Source of the DNA: Arenicellales bacterium
GTDB taxonomy: Bacteria; Pseudomonadota; Gammaproteobacteria; Arenicellales; JAJDZL01
Length of the DNA stretch: 64,000 bases
Reading direction: 5' to 3'
Assembly (NCBI GenBank): GCA_965200425.1
Contig: CBDAUA010000002.1
Location: 65,392-129,391 of the forward strand
A model generated the notes under the pieces. The model was not told where the DNA came from. It was given only the letters and a program-made list of their open reading frames with translations, and made no database searches. Below, in pieces: positions 8,126 through 64,000 of the stretch (the stretch's first letter is position 1; every line of letters starts with the position of its first letter). The position numbers were made by a program, and so were the translations under genes.

Positions 8126-8884
8126 TCAACTCAGGTGCTGATGAAAGAAATCTAATGTTCGAGACCAAGCCAGTTTAGCATCTTCTGAATCATGCTGATT
8201 TGAGGTAGGATTCGCAAATGCATGGTCTGCGATATACCAATGATTCTCGTACGATTTACCTGCTTGATCCATAGACTTTTCAAAGCCATTTACCATTTCT
8301 TCATTGATCCACTGATCTCGTGTCGCAAAATGACCTTGTACAGGTCCTTTAAGGCCGCTTACTTCCTCGGCACTTTTCGCACAACGACCATAGTAAATTA
8401 CTGTCGCATCTACTGGCGTTGCAATCGATGTATTGAGCGACCATCCACCACCAAAACACCAACCAATCGTTCCGACTTTACCATTGCTATTTGGATGATT
8501 TCGCAAATACTGAACCCAATTCACGAGTGTTTCTGTGGCTGTATCCAGGTGAACCGAATTCATAAGATTTCTAGCCAGATCAGGTGAGTCTGCCACTTTT
8601 CCACCATACAAATCTACGGCGAGAGCGAGATACCCCAATTCTGCCAATTGCAAAGCCACTTCCTTGATTTGACGATTCAACCCCCACCATTCATGAATCA
8701 ACAATACAGCACCCGTTGGAGAATTTTCAGGTTCGACAAAATATGCAGATACCTTTTCATCGGCTGACCAAATTTCTGCCTCGACCATACTTTCCTTTAG
8801 ATTCGCGAATGCGTTCTTGGAATTGACAGCAGTCATTACCAAGGGTACAGCTCCAATCTTTTTTATTGCGGTTCGACGATCCAT
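8126..8884 (-). CDS. dienelactone hydrolase family protein, probably exported
   Basis: 252 aa. Tat-like N-terminus MDRRTAIKKIGAVPLVMTAV..AFA. Alpha/beta-hydrolase with a GWCFGG nucleophile elbow and a C-terminal ADHAF motif. Confidence 0.75.
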   Translation of the reverse strand: MDRRTAIKKIGAVPLVMTAVNSKNAFANLKESMVEAEIWSADEKVSAYFVEPENSPTGAVLLIHEWWGLNRQIKEVALQLAELGYLALAVDLYGGKVADSPDLARNLMNSVHLDTATETLVNWVQYLRNHPNSNGKVGTIGWCFGGGWSLNTSIATPVDATVIYYGRCAKSAEEVSGLKGPVQGHFATRDQWINEEMVNGFEKSMDQAGKSYENHWYIADHAFANPTSNQHDSEDAKLAWSRTLDFFHQHLS

Positions 8885-9022
8885 TTCATTTCTCCCTTAA
8901 AACATTCCTGCATAAGTCAAAAAAATTTATTTTAGCAAATTCAAATGGTTATTCTCGAACGACTAAAGTGCAGCCAAGCCTTTATTCTTAAACGAAGTGT
9001 TTGATTGAAATTTTATAGAAGT

Positions 9023-9769
9023 CTACCCTTTCGCGGAACTCTGATTCTCCACTTCCAACGCAGCTTTAGCTAGTTCTTCGTCATCTGCCAAATAAAAATT
9101 TCTGATGGGTTTTAGATCATTATTTAGTTGATAAACCAACGGAATACCTGTTGGGATATTCAAGGATGTGATTTCATCCTCAGACAAATTGTCCAGATAC
9201 TTTACGAGTGCTCTTAGGCTATTACCGTGTGCCACAATGAACAGTCGTTTGCCTGAAGAAATTTCCGCCGCGATTACATTTTCCCAGTATCGAACTACTC
9301 TTAGGTAGGTGTCTTCGAGTGATTCCGCCGCTGGCACGGCGATTACATTTGCATATTGCAGATTGTCCTGTAGCTCACTGGTTTGTTCCTTTGACATCGC
9401 GGGAGGGCGCGTCGAATAACTTCGCCGCCAAATGTGCACTTGTTCCTCACCGTGTATTTTTGACATTTCACGTTTATTCAGTCCCTGAAGTGCGCCGTAG
9501 TGTCGTTCATTGAGTTCCCAATTGGTGCGTACCGGTAGCCACATTTGGTCTAGCTCATCCAATGCAAGCCATAAAGTACGAATCGAACGTTTGAGCAGAG
9601 AGGTTAAGGCCAGGTCGAAAACGTAACCGTTTTCCTTCAACAGTTTACCGGCATTTCTTGCTTCTTCGATCCCTCGCGGAGACAAGTCAACATCAACCCA
9701 GCCGGTAAAGCGGTTTTGTAAATTCCACTCACTTTGGCCATGGCGGAGCAACACCAATTCAATTGTCAT
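9023..9769 (-). CDS. gpmA: 2,3-bisphosphoglycerate-dependent phosphoglycerate mutase
   Basis: LVLLRHGQSEWN phosphohistidine motif and AHGNSLRAL. 248 aa. Confidence 0.9.
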   Translation of the reverse strand: MTIELVLLRHGQSEWNLQNRFTGWVDVDLSPRGIEEARNAGKLLKENGYVFDLALTSLLKRSIRTLWLALDELDQMWLPVRTNWELNERHYGALQGLNKREMSKIHGEEQVHIWRRSYSTRPPAMSKEQTSELQDNLQYANVIAVPAAESLEDTYLRVVRYWENVIAAEISSGKRLFIVAHGNSLRALVKYLDNLSEDEITSLNIPTGIPLVYQLNNDLKPIRNFYLADDEELAKAALEVENQSSAKG

Positions 9770-14534: not shown

Positions 14535-14621
14535 ATTGATAGATTAGCAGTGCCGCCCGATTCGCGACTAAATCGGCTGTAGGTGGTAAAACGCGTTATA
14601 GAAATTTTCGTGTTTTATGAA

Positions 14622-15194
14622 CTACGAAATATTTTTCCACTTGATATTACAACCAAAGCTAGGTCGCTGGTTTTGTGAAATTTGAATTCCCGCTAGCAGC
14701 GCTTCTGCTGCCTTTCGAAGATCTGAACCTGTTGGAGTAATACCGTTACTAGGTCGGCTGTTATCGAATTGACCACGATATACAAGTGTTTGTTGGGAAT
14801 CGAAAAAATAAAAATCAGGAGTACATGCCGCTTCGTAAGCCTTTGCGACACTTTGAGATTCATCGTATAGATAAGGAAAGGAGTATCCGAATCGGACCGC
14901 GTCCTTCGCCATCATTGCAGGGCTGTCAGCGGGGTAAGTTGAGACATCATTCGCGCTAATCGCGATTGTTGTTATTCCTTTGCTTTGATACTCATCCGCG
15001 AATTCGGTAAATGCAACTTTGATATTAGCCACGAAAGGACAATGGTTGCAGATAAAAGCAATCACAATGCCTTCAGAGCCACTAAACTCTGACAAAGAAA
15101 CTTGAGGCGCCGGAAAACCCGGATTGGTATTTGGAAGGGAAAAATCAGGTGCGACTGTTCCCAGCTTTAACATGTTCGATTTGGTCGCTACCAT
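14622..15194 (-). CDS. thioredoxin-fold (AhpC/TSA/TlpA-like) redox protein
   Basis: 190 aa. APDFSLPN followed by VIAFICNHCPFV (CxxC-type motif). Confidence 0.7.
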   Translation of the reverse strand: MVATKSNMLKLGTVAPDFSLPNTNPGFPAPQVSLSEFSGSEGIVIAFICNHCPFVANIKVAFTEFADEYQSKGITTIAISANDVSTYPADSPAMMAKDAVRFGYSFPYLYDESQSVAKAYEAACTPDFYFFDSQQTLVYRGQFDNSRPSNGITPTGSDLRKAAEALLAGIQISQNQRPSFGCNIKWKNIS

Positions 15195-18708: not shown

Positions 18709-19614
18709 TTAAATCCGTTCTTCAGACATCCGTCCAATGCGATACAGACGAACTCCCATTAATCCCCCTGGTCTCAGAATGAGAATTAGAAACAGTAAAC
18801 CAAAGGTGGAGATATCGCGATACTCGGCCCCAAGACTGTAGGTAACGAATGCTTCGACGAGCCCCAATAACAAGCCGCCCAAAACAGCACCTGGCAACGA
18901 TCCTACGCCTCCTAGCATCATTGCGACTAATCCCTTGAAGGTGCTCCACAAACCGAACAATGGCGTGACTTGACTATCTCCGGATAAAATCAGAAACGCT
19001 GCTGTACCACCCAGCAGACCAGCCAATGCGAAAGTGGCGACACCGATCAACCCAACTCGCGCTCCGAGCAAATATGCTGCTGTCGGATTATCAGATGCGG
19101 CGCGTAGCAACAAACCGATACGTGTTTTTTTCAAGAATAGGTAAAGCAATCCCATGGCGGCAAATGCAATCACTAGATGGAGCAGATGATCACTTCGAAT
19201 GAAAAGGTCGAACATTTCAACTGAGCCCATTTCGAGACCCGGGTAATCGTGGGTCCGTTGGGGTAGCAGTTGTGAAGAAATTTCGTCCAACTGCATCCAG
19301 ATTGCGAAACTAGCGATCATTGAAGCAATCGCACCAGTTCGACCAGAGTGTGGTGCAAAACACAATCGCTCCACGTAGACTCCGGCAAGACCACTACCCA
19401 GTGCTGTTATCAGAAATAGACCAACAGCGCCCCATCCGAGTATCGGCTCTAACCAAACTGCAAGAGCTGCACCAATCAGCAAACTTGAACCATAGGCCAG
19501 GTTGATTCGCCGCATGATTCCGAAAATTAGCGAAAATCCTAGTGCAAGCAATCCGTAGGCTGAACCAAACAACAAACCATCGATTGTGGTCTGCAACACA
19601 TCCATAGGATGCAT
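18709..19614 (-). CDS. branched-chain amino acid-type ABC permease, LivH-like (second set)
   Basis: 301 aa polytopic protein with a LivH-like N-terminus (TIDGLLFGSAYGLLALGFSLIFGIMRRINLAYG). Confidence 0.8.
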   Translation of the reverse strand: MHPMDVLQTTIDGLLFGSAYGLLALGFSLIFGIMRRINLAYGSSLLIGAALAVWLEPILGWGAVGLFLITALGSGLAGVYVERLCFAPHSGRTGAIASMIASFAIWMQLDEISSQLLPQRTHDYPGLEMGSVEMFDLFIRSDHLLHLVIAFAAMGLLYLFLKKTRIGLLLRAASDNPTAAYLLGARVGLIGVATFALAGLLGGTAAFLILSGDSQVTPLFGLWSTFKGLVAMMLGGVGSLPGAVLGGLLLGLVEAFVTYSLGAEYRDISTFGLLFLILILRPGGLMGVRLYRIGRMSEERI

Positions 19615-19623
19615 ACTTCTAAC

Positions 19624-20343
19624 TTACGCGGATTTCCCGCCCAGATAGGCGCGTTTGATTACGTCGTCATTTTCCATTTCGCCGGGTGTACCATCGAATG
19701 CAACTTTTCCTTGGTCTAGCAGATAGAAGTGATCTGCAACTTCCAGGGCTTTAACAGCATTTTGCTCTACCAAAACAATTGGCATACCTTCTTGATTTAC
19801 TTCGCGAATGATTGCGAAGATTTCATCAACAATTTTTGGCGCGAGACCGACAGACGGTTCATCCATCAACAGCATCTTGGGCTTAGAGATTAGCGCGCGT
19901 GCAACCGCTAGCATCTGTTGTTCGCCACCGGATAAAGTGCCCGCATTTTGACTATCTCTTTGCTCGAGTAACGGAAAGCGTTTATACATCGCCTCAATGT
20001 CTTGCATTACTTGGCCTTGCTCTGATTTGTGTCGAGAATAAGCTCCTGCCAATAAATTCTCTCGAACAGTCAATTCTGGGAAAACAAGCCGATTTTCAGG
20101 GATGAGTGCAAGACCACTTCTTAGTACTTTAGGTGCACCGACTCCAGCTAGTTCGTTACCTTGCAACTGCACCGATCCGCTGTCAGGATTAAGTATGCCT
20201 GCAATCGTGAACATCAAAGTAGTTTTACCGGCTCCGTTTGGACCCAATATACAGGTCACACGTCCATCTTCAGCTTCAAGTGAAACTGACTTTAGGGCTT
20301 TTATCAAACCGTAAGAAGTAGTTAAATCGCGTACGACTAACAT
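19624..20343 (-). CDS. livF: ABC transporter ATP-binding protein LivF-like (first set)
   Basis: 239 aa. GPNGAGKTT, LSGGEQQMLAVARAL, LLMDEPS. Confidence 0.85.
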   Translation of the reverse strand: MLVVRDLTTSYGLIKALKSVSLEAEDGRVTCILGPNGAGKTTLMFTIAGILNPDSGSVQLQGNELAGVGAPKVLRSGLALIPENRLVFPELTVRENLLAGAYSRHKSEQGQVMQDIEAMYKRFPLLEQRDSQNAGTLSGGEQQMLAVARALISKPKMLLMDEPSVGLAPKIVDEIFAIIREVNQEGMPIVLVEQNAVKALEVADHFYLLDQGKVAFDGTPGEMENDDVIKRAYLGGKSA

Positions 20344-40258: not shown

Positions 40259-42274
40259 CTAAGTGTTGATTTGTTGTAGAACTGCTTGCTCCACCGCCTC
40301 GGCCGTTAAGTTGAATAGTTTATACAATTCGTTACCAGGTGCTGATTCGCCGAATGAATCTACCCCCATAATTTTTCCCAATGGACCTGCATATTTTGCC
40401 CAAAGTGCAGTTACTCCCGCCTCAACCACTACTCTGGCCTGAACATCGGGTGACACAACCGAATCCTGATAATCGGATGGCTGAGATTCAAATACATCCA
40501 CTGATGGCATGGAAACCACTTGTACACGGACGTTCTTTGCTTGAAGTGACTGGGCAGCTGCAACCGCCAATGCAACCTCTGTTCCAGTTGCGATGATCAA
40601 AGCCTGCGGTGGCTCATCACAGTGTATTAACACATAACCACCCTTTGCGATCTGTTCGACTTGACTAGAAGTGCGTGGCTGCGGCGGAACACCCTGTCTC
40701 GAAAACAGTAGACTCGTTGGCCCCGATTTTCTTTCAATCGCTGCTTTCCATGCGACAAGTGACTCTTGAGTATCGCAAGGTCTCCAAACCGACATATTTG
40801 GAATCAAACGAAGGGTTGCAGCTTGCTCAACGGCTTGATGTGTGGGCCCGTCTTCGCCCAATCCGATCGAATCGTGTGTGTAAACAAAAATTGCTTGAAT
40901 TCCCATCAATGCTGCCATCCGAACAGCATTTCTGGCGTATTCGGAGAACATCAAAAAAGTTGCGGCATAGGGGATTAAACCTCCATGCAATGCGATTCCG
41001 TTGGAGATCGCTGTCATGCCGAACTCTCGAACCCCGAAGTACAGATAATTTCCGTTGGCGTCACTACCTGTAATTGCCTTCGAACGATTAAAGTAGGTCA
41101 AGTTAGATCCTGTCAGGTCAGCTGATCCTCCGATCAATTCTGGAAGTTCTGAGCCAAACGAATTTAATGCAACTTTCGATGACTGACGGGTCGCAAGTGG
41201 TTTTGCGTTCTTACCAATCTCATGGATCATCTGAGAACTATGTTCTTCCCAGTTCGAAGGCAGCCGCCCTTCGACCCGACGCATGAATTCCTCTGCCAAT
41301 TCCGGATACTCTAGCCGATACGCTTGAAATCGTTGTTCCCACTCCACTTCCGCTCGAGCACCTTTGGAACTCCCATCGAAAGCATCATAAATGAACTTAG
41401 GAATTTCAAATTTTTCGTATTTCCAACCGAGATTTTCCCGCACTAGTTGAATTTCTGCGAAACCAAGTGGCGTACCGTGTACTGAAGCAGTAGCTTGCTT
41501 GTTTGGAGCCCCCCATCCAATTAATGTCTTACAACAGATCAGACTAGGCTTATTGGATTCGTGTTGTGCAGCTTCTATTGCCTCTCGAATTTGTTGAGGA
41601 TCATGCCCATCTACATCGGGAACGACATGCCAACCGTAGGAAAGAAATCTTTGAGGAATGTCTTCAGTAAACCAGCCCGATACCTCCCCATCTATGGAGA
41701 TGTTATTGTCATCGTAAATCACGATCAATTTATTCAGTTGGTGAGTTCCTGCAAACGAAGCTGCTTCATGGGAGATACCCTCCATCAAACAACCGTCACC
41801 GGTAAATACATAGGTATAGTGATCCACTATCTCGTGCCCAGGTCGATTGAATTGAGCCGCCAAGACCTTTTCTGCAAGCGCAAAACCGACTGCATTTGCT
41901 AAACCTTGAGCCAGCGGCCCTGTCGTAGTCTCAACTCCAGGTGTTACACCGTATTCTGGATGACCAGGCGTTTTAGAGTGTAGTTGTCGAAATTGTCGTA
42001 TTTCATCGAGAGGAAGATCGTATCCTGAAAGATGTAACATGGCATAAATCAGCATCGAACCATGACCGTTTGACAAAACGAATCGGTCTCGATCAATCCA
42101 ATTTGGGTTTTTGGGATTGTGCTTTAAAAAATCATTCCACAACACTTCTGCGATATCGGCCATGCCCATCGGCATTCCGGGATGCCCGGAATTTGCTTCT
42201 TGAACAGCGTCCATCGAAAGTACTCGAATCGCATTTGCTTTTTCTCGTCGAGTAGGCGAGCTTGATTGGTGCAT
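40259..42274 (-). CDS. tkt: transketolase
   Basis: 671 aa. [41 protein letters not shown]. Confidence 0.93.
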
Positions 42275-56635: not shown

Positions 56636-57607
56636 TTACATCGCGTGATAAGCGTCGATTACAGCTTGACCTTCTGCTCCAGCACGATCTAGCCATTCTT
56701 TCATCATGACTTCACCGATTCTTTTGAAATCAGCAGAGAGTTGTGCACTTGGAAGATCTACGCTCATCCCGTTTGCAGCCAACTGCTCTTTATACCAATT
56801 GGCTAGGCTTTCCGCTTTTGCCCAACCAGCCGCTTCAGCGTTAGCCGCTGCATCCATGACAATTTGTTGGGTCGCGGCATCAAGACTTGCCCAGGATTCG
56901 TTGTTAACAATGACCATATTCTTAGGCAGCCAGGCTTGTACATCGTACCAATAATCTACATACTCCCAAAGTTTTCTGTCATATCCGGTTGAACCCGAAG
57001 AAATCATACTCTCAGCTTGTCCTGTAGCGAAGGCTTGAGACAGTTCGGCGGCTTCAATTTTTGTCGGGATCGCGCCAATCAACTCGGCGAGTCTCGCTGT
57101 TGCTGCATTGTAAGCACGAAACTTAACATCGTTCAAATCGGCAGCGCTGTTGACTGGAGTCTTGTTATATAAACCTTGAGGTGGCCACGGTATAGCATAT
57201 AACAAAGTGACGCCCTTTTGATTTAGGACTTCTTGCATGGCGGGCTTGGAAGCTTGATAGAGCTTCATTGCGTTTTCGAAGCTCGTCGCTAGAAATGGTA
57301 ATGCATCGATCTCGAAAATCGGGTGTTCATTTCCCAATGCAGAAATTAGTCTTTCGCCAATTGGTGCTTGGCCTGTTCGAACCGCTCGAAAGATTTCACC
57401 CCCTTTATAGAGTGAACCACTCGGGTGAGTGACCACTTCTAACGCACCACCAGTCGCTTTCGTAACAGCTTCTGCAAAAGCAGCGGCATTTTCGGAGTGG
57501 TAATTCGTAGCAGAGTAAGCAAGTGGCATGTCCCATTTTTCAGCGTAAGCAGTGTTTGCAACCAAACTTAGTGCCACAACTAAAGACAACATAAACTTTT
57601 TAATCAT
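56636..57607 (-). CDS. dctP: TRAP transporter substrate-binding protein
   Basis: 323 aa. Signal peptide ...LVANTAYA|EK and DctP-family length and character. Confidence 0.85.
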   Translation of the reverse strand: MIKKFMLSLVVALSLVANTAYAEKWDMPLAYSATNYHSENAAAFAEAVTKATGGALEVVTHPSGSLYKGGEIFRAVRTGQAPIGERLISALGNEHPIFEIDALPFLATSFENAMKLYQASKPAMQEVLNQKGVTLLYAIPWPPQGLYNKTPVNSAADLNDVKFRAYNAATARLAELIGAIPTKIEAAELSQAFATGQAESMISSGSTGYDRKLWEYVDYWYDVQAWLPKNMVIVNNESWASLDAATQQIVMDAAANAEAAGWAKAESLANWYKEQLAANGMSVDLPSAQLSADFKRIGEVMMKEWLDRAGAEGQAVIDAYHAM

Positions 57608-57704: not shown

Positions 57705-58958
57705 AAGTTAATCTGTGTGATGACAAGTTGAGGTATTAAATCCCAATGCCCGAAGTTCAAGGTCTAACGAACACCAACGAGTTTTATAGTAGTCACTATT
57801 TCTCAGTCATCTTTCCGAATAAGCTGGATGCGACTATTCGAAAGTGGAACAAAGAAGTTGAACAAACAGAGACGGGTGTCAAGGCAACGCAACTGGTTGA
57901 AGAAATTCGAAAGTTAGCGCCAGCTTACCGAAAATTTCTACACAAGTTCATGCAAACTGAACGAAGCCAAACTGAGCGTTGGGCACTGCAGCGTGATTGG
58001 TATTGTGAATTGTTGAGCAAGTTCGGCTATGGATGTTTTCCTCAAACTTTGTCTGTTGACGGTGTTGAAGTTCCTATTTTTCATAAAGAAGTTGACGAAA
58101 ATGGTTATGACCGTTTTTTAATTCTAGCGACCTTCGATACGGACGCCAGTGACGAGGATCCATTGTCCTTGAGACCTCATGAAGTTCAGTTCGAACCAGA
58201 TCCACTATTTGCAGAGGATTTGCTTGATTGGTCCTGGCAGCGCGTGATCGATGAGCATATTTTCTCGCAAGTTCATCCGCCGCGATGGGTGTTACATTTG
58301 TCGTACTCGCAGATGATATTGATTGACCGTACAAAATGGCCGATGCAGCAATATCTGAGATTTGATCTAACTGAAATCTTCGATCGACTAGAACGATACG
58401 CGTTGGCTGCGATGGTGTTAATGTTGCACCCGAAAGGGATTGGTTTGAGACAGGCTTCAAGTGGTTTTCTGGATGGTTTGGAACAAGATAGTCATCGTCA
58501 TGCTTATAGCGTGTCGACCGATTTGAAGTATGCCATGCGCGAGGCAATTGAATTGATTGGCAATGAAGCGATTTGGTATTTGCAACGCGAGGGAAAGCTA
58601 GGTCAACAGGATGATCGGCTCGCCACGGAACTAAGTCGTGAAAGTCTGCGCTACCTGTATCGTTTGTTGTTTTTGCTGTATCTAGAAGCCCGCCCGAACT
58701 TAGGCTATGTGCCGATGAATTCAGAAACTTTTGTCAGTGGGTATAGTTTAGAAAGTTTGCGCGAGTTAGAAATGGTTCAGTTGACCACAGAACGTTCTCG
58801 CAACGGCTATTTTCTACATGAAAGTATCGAGCAATTGTTCCGCTTGGTGCGTGAAGGACTTCAGCCAAGTACTGAGCACCAAGAGGATTTACATGCCGAT
58901 GCAGAATCGTTCCAGATTCGTGCTGTGGATGACAAATTATTTGCTCGTCAGTCCTTAG
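57705..58958 (+). repeat. tandem direct repeat, copy 1 (leader plus first about 1.2 kb of the methyltransferase gene)
   Basis: Collinear with 62747-64000 at a constant offset of 5042 nt. Perfectly identical tracts at 58336-58503 and 58754-58926. Confidence 0.9.
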
Positions 58959-61900
58959 AAATTCTCAGCGAAGTGAAGTTTCGCAATTTCATCTTACAAA
59001 GAGTCATTCGCCTGTTATCGCTGACGCGCCCTGGAAGTAAAGTGCACAAGAAACGAGGTCGCATTTCGTATTCACATTTGGGGATCAACCAGTTGGGGTC
59101 AGTGTATGAAACCTTACTTCCATACCGAGGGTTTTTCGCCAAGGAGCACTTGTATGAAGTGTGCCGAAAAAACGTCAGCCCTGACATCTTAGATGTTGCG
59201 CACTTGGTAAATGTGGATGATTTAAAAGACTATGAGGAAGACGAACGTGTATATGAAGATAAGAAGAAAACAGTTTTACGAAAGTATTCAAAAGGACAAT
59301 TTATCTATCGATTGGCCGGTCGAGAAAGAACCAGTAGTGGTAGTTTTTATACTCCTGAATCACTGGCCCAGTGTGTCGTGAAATATAGCTTGAAAGAAGT
59401 AATTCGCGAGGACATGACGGCTGCGGAAATATTGAAGCTGACGGTATGTGAACCGGCCATGGGTTCTGCGGCGTTTCTCAATGAAGCGGTCAATCAATTG
59501 GCTGAAGCCTATCTTACGCGACGCCAACGCGAACGAAAGCTCAAAATCGAGCGCAAAGACTATGTTGATGAACTACAGAAAGTCAAACGTTACATCACCG
59601 ACCGAAACGTATTTGGAGTCGATTTAAATCCAGTCGCCACCGAGTTAGGTGAGTTATCGATGCGTCTTAATTGTATGTATCAAGATGGACAGTCACCGTG
59701 GTTTGGTTTTCAAGTTTATTGTGGAAATTCCCTGGTAGGGGCGCGTCGGGAGTTTTTTCGAACAACTGAACTTGCAAAGAAGAATTGGTACAACAAGACT
59801 TCATTTCGAGTCGATGCAGGCCGCTCTGAAGCTCTTGAACAAACCGAAGACAGTATCTACCATTTTCTTGTACCCCATCCAGACATGCTGAGCTCTACAG
59901 CAGATAAGAAGTTGAAGCAGTTTTTCGAACCCTCGATCGTACAGTTATTTGCCCAAAGAAAGAAGGAGTTTAAAAGTTCGTGCCCTGGCCATGAGCTGAA
60001 TCAATTGCAACGAATTACATCCATTTTGGATGTGCTGTGGCAACGACAGGCCGCGAAACTGGCGCAAAGTCGGCAAGATACACAAGACCATATGGAAGTT
60101 TGGGGCAGCGAAGTCAAAGGCGACAAATTAACTGAATACTCTGACAAAGAACGCTATCTTGAAAGCTTTAGTCCAACGAAGAAAAACCATCCTGTAACAG
60201 AATACCAAATACTCAAACTGGTGATGGACTACTGGTGTGCAATGTGGTACTGGCCGGCCCAAGCTGAGGTATTGCCACCGACTAGAGCTGAATACATTCA
60301 AGACCTGATGACAGTGGTATCGTTTCGAACTAAGGATGACCGAGATCTTCAATTTGACGATTTATTTCTATTCGAAGAAGGAAAAGAATTAGCTCAGAAA
60401 CTGCGACTTCTCAAAGCGCAGCAGGGCTATGTTTCTTTCAAGGACCTAGTGACAAATATTCCAAGATTGAAGCTGGCGCATAAACTTTCTAGAAAGTATC
60501 GCTTTTTTCATTGGGAGCTAGAATTTGCAGATATTTTTCTAAGCAAAACGAACGATGGTGAGAGCCGAGGAGGCTTTGATCTTGTCATAGGAAATCCACC
60601 CTGGATCAAGTTGAATTTCAAAGAACAAGATGTGTTGGCAGAGTTTGAACCGAAAATCTGGGTTCATAAAATGTCAGCAAGCAATGTCACAGCCTTAAGA
60701 CCGACATTGTTTCAAAAACACCCACAGGCAAAGGATGAATTAATTGAGTACGGAACTTATATGCTGTGTACCCAACAATTTCTAAACTCAGAACAAAACT
60801 ATCCATTCCTCAAAGGCCAGCAAACCAATTTATACAAAGCCTTTATCGCTCAGAGTTGGTGGTTGTCAAGAAGTAAGGGTGCAAGCGGGTTGCTCCATCC
60901 AAAAGATGTTTTTGATACAGTCAAAGGCGACAGCTTTCGGCAACAAGCTTATCCTCGACTACGCTACCAATTTCGATTTCATAATGTTAAGAAACTATTC
61001 CATGACGTTCATACCGCAACTCAATTTGCCGTCAATATTTATTCACAGCTCAATGAGGAGCTAGGTTTTGATCTAATTTCGAATCTTTATCTGCCAAAGA
61101 CGATTGACGCTAGCTATCTTCATAGTGGTAGTGGTGACATCCCAGGTATCAAAGACAAAAACAACCAATACAACACTTCGCCTCATAAAGCACGTGTCAT
61201 CAAGATTGATAAATTGATTCTTGAAGATTTCGCGGCAGTCGTCAATCGAGCCGGACAGGCGCTGCACAAAGTTCCGATATTGGAATTACATTCTACTGCG
61301 CTGCTGTCAGTGATCAAAAAATTCGCACAGCTCCCAAATCGACTCGGAAATTTTTACGAAGACGTTCACGTTTACGAGCATTGGCATGAAACGAATGCCC
61401 AAAAGGACGGCACCATTCGTCGACAAACTCAGTTTGTCACAGAGCCAACAAAGTTCATCTACTCCGGCCCACATTTTTTCGTCGGCAATCCATTTGCAAA
61501 AACACCTCGCGCGGTCTGTCTAGCCAATGGCCACTACGATACTTTGGAGCTATCCATTATTCCCGACAACTATTTGCCACGTACGAACTATGTACCGGCT
61601 TGTAATGCCATCGAGTACGAGACCCGAACTCCAAATTCACCATGGACTGATGACGACGAACTTCCTCTCAAAACGACTCAATTCTATCGCGTGTTGTTTC
61701 GAAAAATGATTAGTCCCGCAAATGAGAGAACTCTCATCTCAAGTTTGGTTCCGAAAGCTGTAGCGAGTATAAACGCGTGTACCACTGTGGTCTTTCGAAG
61801 CTACAAAGCAGCTGTTGAATTTGCTGTACTTTGTAATTCAATTGTGTTGGACTATTTCACCAAATGTTCTGGCGTAACCAACGTAATTAAGAGTACTTTG

Positions 61901-62641
61901 GATCAATTACCCGTATTCGGAATTAAAACGAATGTACAGCTACGTTTGGCCTTAATCGTAAGAGCATTGATTTTGAGCTGTCTTAGCTCGCACTTTCGTG
62001 AATTATGGGAGTCACTATGTCAGCTTAAGGTCGACTTAGTTCGAACGAACACATTAGATTCGGCCAATCGCGTTAGCTATTTGGAGTTTTTCCAGCACGA
62101 CGCATGGACCATTACAGACCCGAAAATTGACGCTGAATTCTTTTCCCAGCTGACACCGCATTGGCAAAGAAATGTCGCGCTACGTTCAGAACGCATGCGC
62201 CGCCAAGCTCTAGTTGAAATCGATGTCCTAGTCGCAATGGCATTTGGCTTTACTTTGGATGAACTACTCGCAATGTATCGAATTCAATTTCCGACATTAC
62301 AAAAATATGAAAACAACACTTGGTATGATTCAAACGGTCGTATTGTTTACACATCTAGATCAGGCTACAAAGCAGCACCATCCAAAGCGGTTAAGAATGA
62401 CAACAATTGGAGCATATGCACAAATGTTCGAACCGAGAACAATATCGCATTAGGCTGGCAAGACATTAAAGATCTTAGGGGGGGGGTGGTTACTCAAAAA
62501 GTGCTCGACAACACTCTTGCAGGCGAGCCAGTAGAGCGCACCATTGAATATCATGCTCCATTTTCGAAATGTGACCGAGAACAAGATTATCGTCAGGCTT
62601 GGGAACAGTTTACTGATCGGTATTCTAGCGAACGAGCCTAG
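57746..62641 (+). CDS. giant (1631 aa) gamma-class N6-adenine DNA methyltransferase, PglX / type IIG (Eco57I-like) family
   Basis: Ordered MTase motifs: SFYTPESLAQ, CEPAMGSAAFLNEA (about 59450-59476), FGVDLNPVATEL, YCGNSLVG, FFHWELEFADIF and FDLVIGNPPWIKL (about 60590-60604). About 560 aa lie N-terminal and about 680 aa C-terminal to the MTase core. By eye I found no Walker A, helicase or clear PD-(D/E)xK motif. Confidence 0.85.
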   Translation: MPEVQGLTNTNEFYSSHYFSVIFPNKLDATIRKWNKEVEQTETGVKATQLVEEIRKLAPAYRKFLHKFMQTERSQTERWALQRDWYCELLSKFGYGCFPQTLSVDGVEVPIFHKEVDENGYDRFLILATFDTDASDEDPLSLRPHEVQFEPDPLFAEDLLDWSWQRVIDEHIFSQVHPPRWVLHLSYSQMILIDRTKWPMQQYLRFDLTEIFDRLERYALAAMVLMLHPKGIGLRQASSGFLDGLEQDSHRHAYSVSTDLKYAMREAIELIGNEAIWYLQREGKLGQQDDRLATELSRESLRYLYRLLFLLYLEARPNLGYVPMNSETFVSGYSLESLRELEMVQLTTERSRNGYFLHESIEQLFRLVREGLQPSTEHQEDLHADAESFQIRAVDDKLFARQSLEILSEVKFRNFILQRVIRLLSLTRPGSKVHKKRGRISYSHLGINQLGSVYETLLPYRGFFAKEHLYEVCRKNVSPDILDVAHLVNVDDLKDYEEDERVYEDKKKTVLRKYSKGQFIYRLAGRERTSSGSFYTPESLAQCVVKYSLKEVIREDMTAAEILKLTVCEPAMGSAAFLNEAVNQLAEAYLTRRQRERKLKIERKDYVDELQKVKRYITDRNVFGVDLNPVATELGELSMRLNCMYQDGQSPWFGFQVYCGNSLVGARREFFRTTELAKKNWYNKTSFRVDAGRSEALEQTEDSIYHFLVPHPDMLSSTADKKLKQFFEPSIVQLFAQRKKEFKSSCPGHELNQLQRITSILDVLWQRQAAKLAQSRQDTQDHMEVWGSEVKGDKLTEYSDKERYLESFSPTKKNHPVTEYQILKLVMDYWCAMWYWPAQAEVLPPTRAEYIQDLMTVVSFRTKDDRDLQFDDLFLFEEGKELAQKLRLLKAQQGYVSFKDLVTNIPRLKLAHKLSRKYRFFHWELEFADIFLSKTNDGESRGGFDLVIGNPPWIKLNFKEQDVLAEFEPKIWVHKMSASNVTALRPTLFQKHPQAKDELIEYGTYMLCTQQFLNSEQNYPFLKGQQTNLYKAFIAQSWWLSRSKGASGLLHPKDVFDTVKGDSFRQQAYPRLRYQFRFHNVKKLFHDVHTATQFAVNIYSQLNEELGFDLISNLYLPKTIDASYLHSGSGDIPGIKDKNNQYNTSPHKARVIKIDKLILEDFAAVVNRAGQALHKVPILELHSTALLSVIKKFAQLPNRLGNFYEDVHVYEHWHETNAQKDGTIRRQTQFVTEPTKFIYSGPHFFVGNPFAKTPRAVCLANGHYDTLELSIIPDNYLPRTNYVPACNAIEYETRTPNSPWTDDDELPLKTTQFYRVLFRKMISPANERTLISSLVPKAVASINACTTVVFRSYKAAVEFAVLCNSIVLDYFTKCSGVTNVIKSTLDQLPVFGIKTNVQLRLALIVRALILSCLSSHFRELWESLCQLKVDLVRTNTLDSANRVSYLEFFQHDAWTITDPKIDAEFFSQLTPHWQRNVALRSERMRRQALVEIDVLVAMAFGFTLDELLAMYRIQFPTLQKYENNTWYDSNGRIVYTSRSGYKAAPSKAVKNDNNWSICTNVRTENNIALGWQDIKDLRGGVVTQKVLDNTLAGEPVERTIEYHAPFSKCDREQDYRQAWEQFTDRYSSERA
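62478..62486 (+). repeat. G9 homopolymeric tract inside the methyltransferase coding sequence
   Basis: The sequence reads gatcttaGGGGGGGGGtggtt, encoding ...DLRGGVV... about 52 codons before the stop. It is the only long G run I noticed in this window. Confidence 0.9.
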
Positions 62642-62746
62642 CTTCTTTAAGGCATGCCTCCTTCTGTTGTCGCTTTTGGGAAATTCTCAGATCACTGAAA
62701 GACTTTATAGCGAGTCTGCATTAGGCCATAAATCAAGGAGCCGACA

Positions 62747-64000
62747 AAGTTAATCTATGTGAAGACAAGTTGAGGTAACAAATCCCAATGCCAGAAGTTC
62801 AAGGTTTAACGAACGCCAACGAATTTTATAGTAATCACTATTTTTCAGTAATCTTTCCGAATAAGCTGGATGCCACTATTCGCGAGTGGAACAAAGAAGT
62901 TGAGCAGACAGGCACAGGTGTCAAGGCAAGGCAGCTGGTTGATGAAATTAGAAAGTTAGCACCACGCTACCGTGAGTTTCTTACCAAGTTCATGCAAACT
63001 GAACGAAGCCAAACTGAGCGTTGGGCACTGCAGCGTGACTGGTATTGTGAATTGTTCAGCAAGTTGGGATATCAATGCATTCCTCGAACTTTGTCTGTTG
63101 ACAGTGTTGAAGTTCCTATTTTTCATAAAGAAGTTGACGAAAATGGTTATGACCGTTTTTTGATTTTAGCAGCCTTCGATACGGACGCCAGTGACGAGGA
63201 TCCATTGTCCTTGAGACCTCATGAAGTTCAGTTCGAACCACGCCCAGTAGTTTTAGAAGATTCAGTTGCTTGGTCGTGGCAGAGTGTGATTGATGATCAT
63301 ATATTTTCGCAAGTTCATCCGCCGCGGTGGGTGTTACATTTGTCGTACTCGCAGATGATATTGATTGACCGCACAAAGTGGCCGATGCAGCAATATCTGA
63401 GATTTGATCTAACTGAAATCTTCGATCGACTAGAACGATACGCGTTGGCTGCGATGGTGTTAATGTTGCACCCGAAAGGGATTGGTTTGAGACAGGCTTC
63501 AAGTGGTTTTCTGGATGGTTTGGAACAAGATAGTCATCGTCATGCCTATAGTGTGTCGACCGATTTGAAGTATGCGATGCGAGAGGCGATTGAATGCATT
63601 GGCAATGAAGCGATTTGGTATTTGCAGCAGAATCGAATGCAAGGCAGACTTGATGACCAGCTCGCCAGGCAATTAAGTCTTGAAAGTTTGCGCTACCTTT
63701 ATCGTTTGTTGTTTTTGCTGTATCTAGAAGCACGCCCGAACTTGGGTTATGTGCCGATGAATTCAGAGACCTTTGTCAGTGGTTATAGCTTGGAGAGTTT
63801 GCGCGAGTTAGAAATGGTTCAGTTGACCACAGAACGTTCTCGCAACGGCTATTTTCTACATGAAAGTATCGAGCAATTGTTCCGCTTGGTGCGTGAAGGA
63901 CTTCAGCCAAGTACTGAGCACCAAGAGGATTTACATGCCGATGCAGAATCGTTCCAGATTCGTGCTGTAGATGACAAATTATTTGCTCGTCAGTCTTTGC
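62747..64000 (+). repeat. tandem direct repeat, copy 2
   Basis: Matches 57705-58958 (offset 5042). Its true end is unknown because it runs off the window. Confidence 0.9.
62788..64000 (+). CDS. second giant methyltransferase paralogue, partial (runs off the window end)
   Basis: Not in the ORF track because there is no stop in-window. My manual translation from ATG 62788 is open for all 404 codons and collinear without indels with residues 1-404 of the first copy (MPEVQGLTNANEFYSNHYFSVIFPNKLDATIREW...). Confidence 0.85.
   Translation, partial: MPEVQGLTNANEFYSNHYFSVIFPNKLDATIREWNKEVEQTGTGVKARQLVDEIRKLAPRYREFLTKFMQTERSQTERWALQRDWYCELFSKLGYQCIPRTLSVDSVEVPIFHKEVDENGYDRFLILAAFDTDASDEDPLSLRPHEVQFEPRPVVLEDSVAWSWQSVIDDHIFSQVHPPRWVLHLSYSQMILIDRTKWPMQQYLRFDLTEIFDRLERYALAAMVLMLHPKGIGLRQASSGFLDGLEQDSHRHAYSVSTDLKYAMREAIECIGNEAIWYLQQNRMQGRLDDQLARQLSLESLRYLYRLLFLLYLEARPNLGYVPMNSETFVSGYSLESLRELEMVQLTTERSRNGYFLHESIEQLFRLVREGLQPSTEHQEDLHADAESFQIRAVDDKLFARQSL

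Follow-up and report, generated by a model that had tools for sequence, protein, structure and literature searches.

The right-hand end of the window (the whole 64-kb stretch of DNA that was analysed) holds two head-to-tail genes that comparison at the protein level firmly places in the ArmB family, the N6-adenine DNA methyltransferases of the ARMADA type II defence system. They open a head-to-tail armB array that lacks the otherwise invariant upstream armA. The features of the locus are listed below in nucleotides (nt) and amino acids (aa), where copy 1 and copy 2 are the first and second armB paralogue in the window, L numbers are fetched loci or contigs and P numbers are database proteins.

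56636..57607, minus strand: substrate-binding protein DctP of a tripartite ATP-independent periplasmic (TRAP) transporter, the divergent left flank (NCBIfam NF037995 TRAP_S1, E 1e-27)
57705..57745, plus strand: leader of 41 nt with a GAGG ribosome-binding site, common to every array copy (blastn)
57746..62641, plus strand: armB paralogue 1 (copy 1), 1631 aa, complete (open reading frame (ORF) calling; identical to database protein P0125)
62642..62787, plus strand: inter-copy spacer of 146 nt (91.5% identity to the L002 spacers 14591-14736 and 19494-19639)
62788..64000, plus strand: armB paralogue 2 (copy 2), first 404 codons, open at the window end (ATG at 62788)

A reading of this DNA made without database searches (the sequence-only reading) had credited the 1631-aa ORF with a complete gamma-class methyltransferase motif set, and each of the motifs that it quoted can be located: FYTPE at residue 534, EPAMGSAAF at 569, GVDLNP at 624, CGNSL at 659 and GNPPW at 949 (NPPW 950-953), the last directly preceded by FHWELEFADIF. 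Its description of a second copy was likewise accurate, with the ATG of copy 2 lying 146 nt past the copy 1 stop on the same strand and the frame open over 404 codons to the edge. The two copies are 90.8% identical in protein and 91.4% identical in DNA over 1252 ungapped nt. The 41 nt ahead of each ATG are homologous, copy 1 included (57705-57745 shares 90% identity with 62747-62787 and 95% with the L002 leaders by blastn), so that the repeat unit starts at 57705; it spans ~5042 nt and is made up of the leader, the 4.9-kb ORF and the remainder of the 146-nt spacer. Scanning and folding of this spacer revealed no promoter or terminator consensus and no fold above background.

Copy 1 aligns with ArmB of E. 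coli SMS-3-5 (L085:7606-12528) at 40% identity (BLASTP, 1164 bits), collinearly from residue 6 to at least residue ~1460. The proteins measure 1631 and 1640 aa, and G573 and N950 of copy 1 are equivalent to G605 and N971 of E. coli ArmB. The ArmA encoded beside the SMS-3-5 ArmB in L085 is WP_001041505.1, the accession used in the supplement of the ARMADA paper. ARMADA type II was defined and validated in E. coli as armA-armB-armC-armD in strict gene order, encoding a Snf2/BrxHII-like helicase (ArmA), a PglX-like N6-adenine DNA methyltransferase (ArmB), a YprA-like helicase-nuclease (ArmC) and a RelE-UvrD helicase (ArmD), with the predicted nuclease of the system residing in a Vsr-like domain of ArmC (bioRxiv 10.1101/2025.09.15.676423). 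The ARMADA of E. coli EDL933 was studied in an mBio paper (PMC13463889), and armABCD is carried by E. coli NCTC 12900, EDL933, ATCC 8739 and SMS-3-5 (bioRxiv 10.1101/2025.09.15.676423; PMC13463889). Defence in E. coli requires all four arm genes and is abolished by the ArmB substitution N971A in NPPW (bioRxiv 10.1101/2025.09.15.676423; PMC13463889); the S-adenosylmethionine (SAM)-binding motif was likewise shown to matter, through G605A (bioRxiv 10.1101/2025.09.15.676423). A protein search over 5.8 billion sequences returned thousands of relatives of copy 1, including a large family of 1620-1690-aa proteins at ~45% identity that are conserved over their whole length, and a scan of GTDB genomes gave one distant Firmicutes locus only.

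The neighbours of family members were clustered in 80 metagenome loci and one genome locus (n=81). On the same strand these 81 loci encode a ~950-aa protein immediately upstream (69 loci), a ~2110-aa protein downstream (45) and then a ~700-aa protein (23). The first is a Snf2 helicase with DrmD as its best PADLOC match, the second a DEAD/Helicase_C/MZB(DUF1998) helicase whose best matches are DruE, and the third a GajB-like UvrD helicase, giving a conserved order of Snf2 helicase, methyltransferase, DEAD/MZB(DUF1998) helicase and UvrD helicase. Wherever at least 1.5 kb of upstream sequence is present armA lies directly upstream (62/62), and armC follows downstream in 39 of 52 loci. The armB gene itself is single-copy in each of these loci (81/81) and in each of 30 plasmids (30/30), and E. 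coli genomes have a median of 1. Between armB and armC some ARMADA II loci have variable cargo, for example a 561-aa Schlafen/AlbA_2 plus HATPase_c_4 protein (L033:10787-12469); such cargo occurs at similar positions in 8 other loci, and L014, L024 and L063 have 2-7 extra genes there.

The window genes thus resemble canonical ARMADA II armB in collinear identity, length class, SAM-binding and NPPW motifs, position of the recognition cassette (described below) and the armA-armB-armC-armD order around their homologues. They differ in that the window lineage has from at least two to at least six head-to-tail copies where canonical loci have one, in that the divergent TRAP gene dctP occupies the position held by armA, and in that the surroundings of the locus are core genes and not a defence island. 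No ArmA, ArmC or ArmD homologue was detected anywhere in the window by tblastn with E. coli and L028 queries. A tandem, multi-armB layout without armA was not found in the ~110 other loci and plasmids, and the literature searched yielded no report of tandem armB or PglX arrays. The sequence-only reading was therefore justified in calling the arrangement atypical and in proposing a methylation-based defence system other than BREX or type ISP; its suggestion that the system is undescribed does not hold, since the family is ArmB of ARMADA type II. What is new here is the tandem, armA-less multi-armB configuration, the system family (ARMADA II, 2025-26) being already known.

Beyond its methyltransferase core copy 1 has ~530 aa of N-terminal and 678 aa of C-terminal sequence, which the sequence-only reading had left unassigned. 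AlphaFold2 models and Foldseek searches assign the N-terminal flank to an alpha/beta domain and a helical region, and the C-terminal flank to a recognition region of TaqI/PglX/MmeI type and a C-terminal domain, as follows (all on the plus strand).

57746..58495, plus strand: alpha/beta domain at the N terminus, aa 1-250, predicted to have a PD-(D/E)xK-like fold and carrying (D/E)RxKW, invariant in the family, at aa 194-198 (AlphaFold2, Foldseek)
58496..59305, plus strand: helical region, aa 251-520, highly conserved in sequence with many invariant columns and poorly modelled (alignment; predicted local distance difference test (pLDDT) <50 over aa 253-465)
59306..60625, plus strand: core of the gamma-class N6-adenine methyltransferase, aa 521-960, in which a long helical insert separates motifs (Pfam, motifs)
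60626..62185, plus strand: target-recognition region, aa ~961-1480 (Foldseek, E. coli allele cassette, ratio of nonsynonymous to synonymous divergence (dN/dS))
62186..62641, plus strand: conserved beta-rich C-terminal domain, aa 1481-1631, plus the stop, with many invariant residues (pLDDT 75-95)

Residues 1-1000 were modelled with a 42-sequence alignment and aa 941-1631 separately (predicted template modelling score 0.73). Confidence in the N-terminal model is mostly high over aa 20-240 (pLDDT 75-92) and poor over aa 253-465 and in places within the methyltransferase core. Its top Foldseek match in the PDB is DrdV chain 7lvv_D (146 residues modelled; probability 0.99, target-normalised template modelling score 0.56, weak E of 0.099), followed by YaeQ proteins at E of at least 1.9 and probability of at most 0.06. 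A canonical PD...(D/E)xK triad was not identified in this domain, where the invariant motif is (D/E)RxKW; the model gives hints of a PD-(D/E)xK-like fold. Fold matches to the aa 941-1631 model are the recognition regions of M.BseCI, CamA, PglX/BrxX, MmeI, BpuSI and HsdS, and a search of the family profile against PDB sequences returned no match at E up to 1. In E. coli, two ArmB alleles (L085:7606-12528 of SMS-3-5 and L086:8615-13543 of 19SZHZ713Rt) are ~100% identical outside one cassette at aa ~930-1470, within which identity falls to 25-75%. Since the alleles diverge solely there, the cassette is taken to be the specificity-determining region, and a recognition cassette that looks swapped explains why armB is the single variable gene of the E. 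coli island (PMC13463889).

This domain order invites a different interpretation, in which each copy is a self-contained type IIG or type IIL restriction-modification enzyme and the array a battery of independent enzymes that need no partners. Like MmeI, DrdV and BpuSI, copy 1 is a single chain in which an alpha/beta domain at the N terminus precedes a gamma-class methyltransferase and a recognition domain, its C-terminal half resembles the recognition regions of MmeI, BpuSI and PglX, DrdV is the best fold match of the confidently modelled N-terminal domain, and no partner genes are visible beside the array. The PADLOC model that matches best in extent is, moreover, named REase_MTase_IIG (PDLC03614, aa 178-1630, E 8e-248). 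The same model, however, matches an ArmB from an ARMADA context more strongly (E 5.5e-284), from which it follows that the 'type IIG' label is the ArmB family under an untested name. The fold matches to type IIG/IIL enzymes are weak, ArmB is larger than these enzymes by ~600-700 aa, and no canonical PD-(D/E)xK motif is recognised in it. The family is furthermore tied genomically to three helicases, and in E. coli ArmB gives no defence when ArmA, ArmC or ArmD is missing, the predicted nuclease being that of ArmC. Because the family always stands beside armA elsewhere and because E. coli ArmB needs its partners, we regard self-contained type IIG enzymes, which the sequence-only reading had entertained, as rather improbable.

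Three further assignments of copy 1 were tried and rejected. Type ISP was dismissed on the Pfam result, which comprises Eco57I (E 1.6e-14) and N6_Mtase (E 7e-6) only, with no helicase and no Walker domain, as the sequence-only reading had also judged. BREX PglX (BrxX) likewise has a gamma-class methyltransferase followed by a recognition domain, serves as methylase and specificity factor at once and gives fold matches to the C-terminal half (8q56, 8c45, 9ewz). The PglX model is, however, absent from the best 25 of the 27 PADLOC families matching copy 1 (on a canonical ArmB it reaches E 9e-6 only), and the neighbours that recur in the family loci are ARMADA helicases, not brx genes. The known diversification of PglX proceeds by programmed inversions with partial silent copies (PMC9881135), unlike the full-length, direct tandem copies of the array. 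DrmMI of class 1 DISARM is comparable: it too is a large adenine methyltransferase of PglX type, and its partners are a Snf2 helicase and a DUF1998 helicase. The DrmMI models cover the methyltransferase core only (E 1e-43; aa ~516-668 and two other stretches), against aa 178-1630 for PDLC03614, and the ArmB-family loci differ from DISARM in having a fused DrmA/B-like ArmC with nuclease and a UvrD-like ArmD and in lacking the phospholipase D (PLD) protein DrmC.

The two genes of the window, which the sequence-only reading took for a pair, are the beginning of a longer array. The 24.5-kb contig L002 consists of array throughout, in the form of a partial, two complete, a frameshifted and a second partial copy, co-oriented (at least five tandem copies) and separated by spacers of 146 nt or of 864 and 1410 nt. 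The closest relatives of copy 1 (85-91% identity) are paralogues in sister genomes: a 606,801-bp contig encodes P0001, P0002, P0136 and P0123 (at least four copies) and a 1,524,832-bp contig P0131, P0004, P0006, P0133, P0127, P0129 and P0134 (counted as at least six copies). P0125 lies on a 196,467-bp contig, as does the transketolase of the window. Three array copies are present in L084, and L088 and L089 are further array pieces. A second left end of an array is found in L083, from a related metagenome (ENA ERZ25068762 ctg106129), at 2214-2986, directly after smpB, so that relative to the dctP site of the window either the array has moved or there is more than one array per genome. The window and five related contigs all end inside the array, and only left flanks are visible; at both of these (dctP in the window, smpB in L083) armA is absent, and no ArmA, ArmC or ArmD homologue was found in L002, L083 or L084. 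The head-to-tail array without the upstream armA is thereby firmly established, and armB was amplified by tandem duplication in an uncultured gammaproteobacterial lineage.

Two side observations concern these contigs. The long spacers of L002 (2483-3892, 1410 nt, and 8834-9697, 864 nt) are mutually homologous and free of ORFs, and a ~56-nt piece of them matches the interior of armB in reverse orientation (e.g. window 60351-60406, 84%). The first armB copy in L083 has an internal deletion of aa ~844-1458.

Metagenome-derived contigs can misjoin strain variants, and the tandem structure might on that account be an assembly or haplotype-collapse artefact that sets variants of one gene side by side, an outcome that the sequence-only reading had allowed for. 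We regard this as next to impossible. The junction has a specific 146-nt spacer that is 91.5% conserved in other assemblies, five independent contigs from two samples and three genome contigs carry several copies each, the synonymous divergence (dS) of 0.28 between copy 1 and copy 2 is far above strain-level variation, and the paralogue types are common to several genomes.

Sequence evolution firmly indicates that the array is ancient, under purifying selection and recombining. Firstly, the array copies form one clade in a neighbour-joining tree, with P0009/P0010 as the sister (52-54% identity, against 45% to the rest of the family). Within this clade the copies group by type across genomes and not by genome, so that the expansion is older than the divergence of the sampled genomes. 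Secondly, dS between array copies is 0.19-0.37 and dN/dS 0.10-0.30 in all pairs (copy 1 vs copy 2: dN 0.050, dS 0.276, dN/dS 0.18), the catalytic motifs, EPAMGSAAF and GNPPW included, are intact in 7/7 full-length copies checked, and the four array copies in the family alignment keep every family-invariant residue, those of the N- and C-terminal domains included. Finally, tree topology varies along the gene, at least five paralogue types taking turns as the closest to copy 1 (120-aa windows), and in DNA copy 1 and copy 2 show blocks of 98-100% identity alternating with blocks of 83-88%, a pattern that points to gene conversion between copies. The recognition region has the highest dN/dS among array copies (0.34-0.49 vs 0.12-0.27 elsewhere); over aa 1141-1620 of copy 1 the best identity per window to any sampled copy is 84-89%, and several windows in its N-terminal part and methyltransferase core reach 94-100% identity to other copies.

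These values also bear on the view that the array is a decaying, pseudogenising remnant of an ARMADA locus after loss of armA. In its favour are truncated copies, the internal deletion in L083 and an in-frame stop in copy C of L002, all in low-coverage contigs, and the splitting of armA by an insertion sequence (IS) element in a canonical ARMADA locus of the same sample as L002 (L087). All 1631 codons of copy 1 and the 404 visible codons of copy 2 are nonetheless intact, dN/dS is low in every pair with the catalytic motifs preserved, and the defects sit in contigs named as 1-5x coverage, where they are possibly errors. Decay of the array is in our judgement very unlikely.

A partner for the array may exist. 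L087 (1546-6212; ENA ERZ25068043 ctg9448), which shares sample and GC content with L002, is a canonical ARMADA locus whose armA is interrupted by the insertion of a DDE transposase (DDE_Tnp_1_4), leaving two parts, and is followed by the armB that encodes P0010, the closest outgroup to the array copies at 52% identity. With L087 ArmA as query a single match stands out among the top 120, P0266 at 59% identity, all others being at 48% or below. P0266 is encoded, together with array copies, on the 1,524,832-bp sister contig, and its relation to the outgroup ArmA mirrors that of the ArmB proteins; this suggests that one or more of the genomes with an array encode an ArmA that has co-diverged.

Were there no link to ArmA, ArmC or ArmD, the copies would be orphan methyltransferases acting in epigenetic regulation, in protection against other restriction systems or through gene dosage. 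The absence of armA at both left flanks and the lack of an ArmA from the contig of the window among the top 120 matches agree with this, as do the lack of mobility genes and the core-like base composition (GC content of the armB region 0.42-0.45, the same as the flanks), which befit a long-resident chromosomal locus. Retention of ~1100 aa of accessory domains at dN/dS 0.1-0.3 is, however, hard to square with a plain methylase, as is the preservation in all four aligned array copies of the family-invariant residues outside the core. The location of P0266, on a sister contig that holds array copies too, also speaks for a link, and dosage would favour identical copies over paralogue types conserved across genomes. 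Orphan enzymes are accordingly an unlikely explanation, though a less improbable one than self-contained type IIG enzymes.

The reading that we prefer, with a probability of about 0.5, is that the copies are active N6-methyladenine (m6A) methyltransferase/specificity modules with diverging recognition domains. Each array copy would be an active m6A methyltransferase with its own recognition domain, and given the divergence of these domains the host chromosome probably receives several different methylation marks from the array. Should the genes for ArmA, ArmC and ArmD lie downstream, or elsewhere with their products acting in trans, the copies would serve as alternative recognition modules for one helicase-nuclease machine, which would have more motifs by which to detect unmethylated incoming DNA and would make phage escape harder. 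With the strict armA-armB adjacency lost, the copies are no longer coupled to armA in transcription at the least.

Several results weigh against this reading. Identity of the recognition domains among array copies is ~80-88%, a modest divergence beside the 25-75% identity of the E. coli cassettes, so that the copies may share one specificity, and the dN/dS of these domains is below 1. The right flank of the array, where armC and armD could lie, is outside all array contigs, and the top 120 ArmA matches include none from the 196,467-bp or 606,801-bp contigs. As E. coli defence needs all four genes, an array devoid of armA might not act in ARMADA-type defence. Several copies in the related low-coverage contigs are, in addition, truncated or carry stops, through either sequencing error or real decay.

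A more elaborate version, which we put forward tentatively and consider possible at best, is that the array acts as a germline repertoire, with complete ArmB specificity/methylase genes under continual reshuffling by gene conversion, through which a single ARMADA-type machine, or ArmB without ArmA, would read many motifs at once. Multi-hsdS type I loci and phase-variable specificity loci offer a parallel, having several specificity determinants per machine and generating new combinations by recombination. They differ in shuffling short hsdS half-genes by way of invertases or inverted repeats, whereas the array of the window consists of whole, co-oriented, translatable 4.9-kb genes with no recombinase or inverted repeat seen.

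The left flank was described correctly in the sequence-only reading. The array abuts the TRAP transporter, left of whose dctP lie a 168-aa ORF, dctM and then mutY, ampG, and the genes for pyruvate kinase and transketolase; no transposase or integrase is present among the annotated neighbours in the window, no BREX gene (brx, pglZ) among the ten annotated left-flank genes, and an Rfam scan of the whole window detected no tRNA and no other RNA. Two antisense ORFs inside the armB copies (58074-58547, minus strand, 157 aa, and 63116-63733, minus strand, 205 aa) are most likely spurious because they lie within strongly conserved coding sequence of the opposite strand. The transketolase (40259-42274, minus strand) has its best named relatives at 65-68% identity in a Xanthomonadaceae metagenome-assembled genome (MAG), Nitrosococcus, and Thiotrichales and Chromatiales MAGs, while the closest of its unnamed matches stand at 82-84%; these low identities indicate that the host is a gammaproteobacterium of an uncultured lineage that is poorly sampled.

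The definition of ARMADA is recent (2025), and the array represents a natural experiment on the evolution of a specificity subunit in a DISARM-like system. The 'type IIG' label derived from PADLOC and REBASE is misleading for the ArmB family. Detached from armA, the array is a test of ArmB function outside the strict four-gene operon, and the configuration becomes more interesting if the copies differ in specificity or act without ArmA. Should every copy prove to write an m6A motif of its own, a single organism would provide a ready panel of closely related enzymes for mapping recognition-domain residues to specificity, as has been done for MmeI. If the repertoire reading is true, it would constitute a new route for diversifying the self/non-self code of DISARM/BREX-like systems, one that relies neither on allelic replacement of a cassette nor on invertible partial copies.

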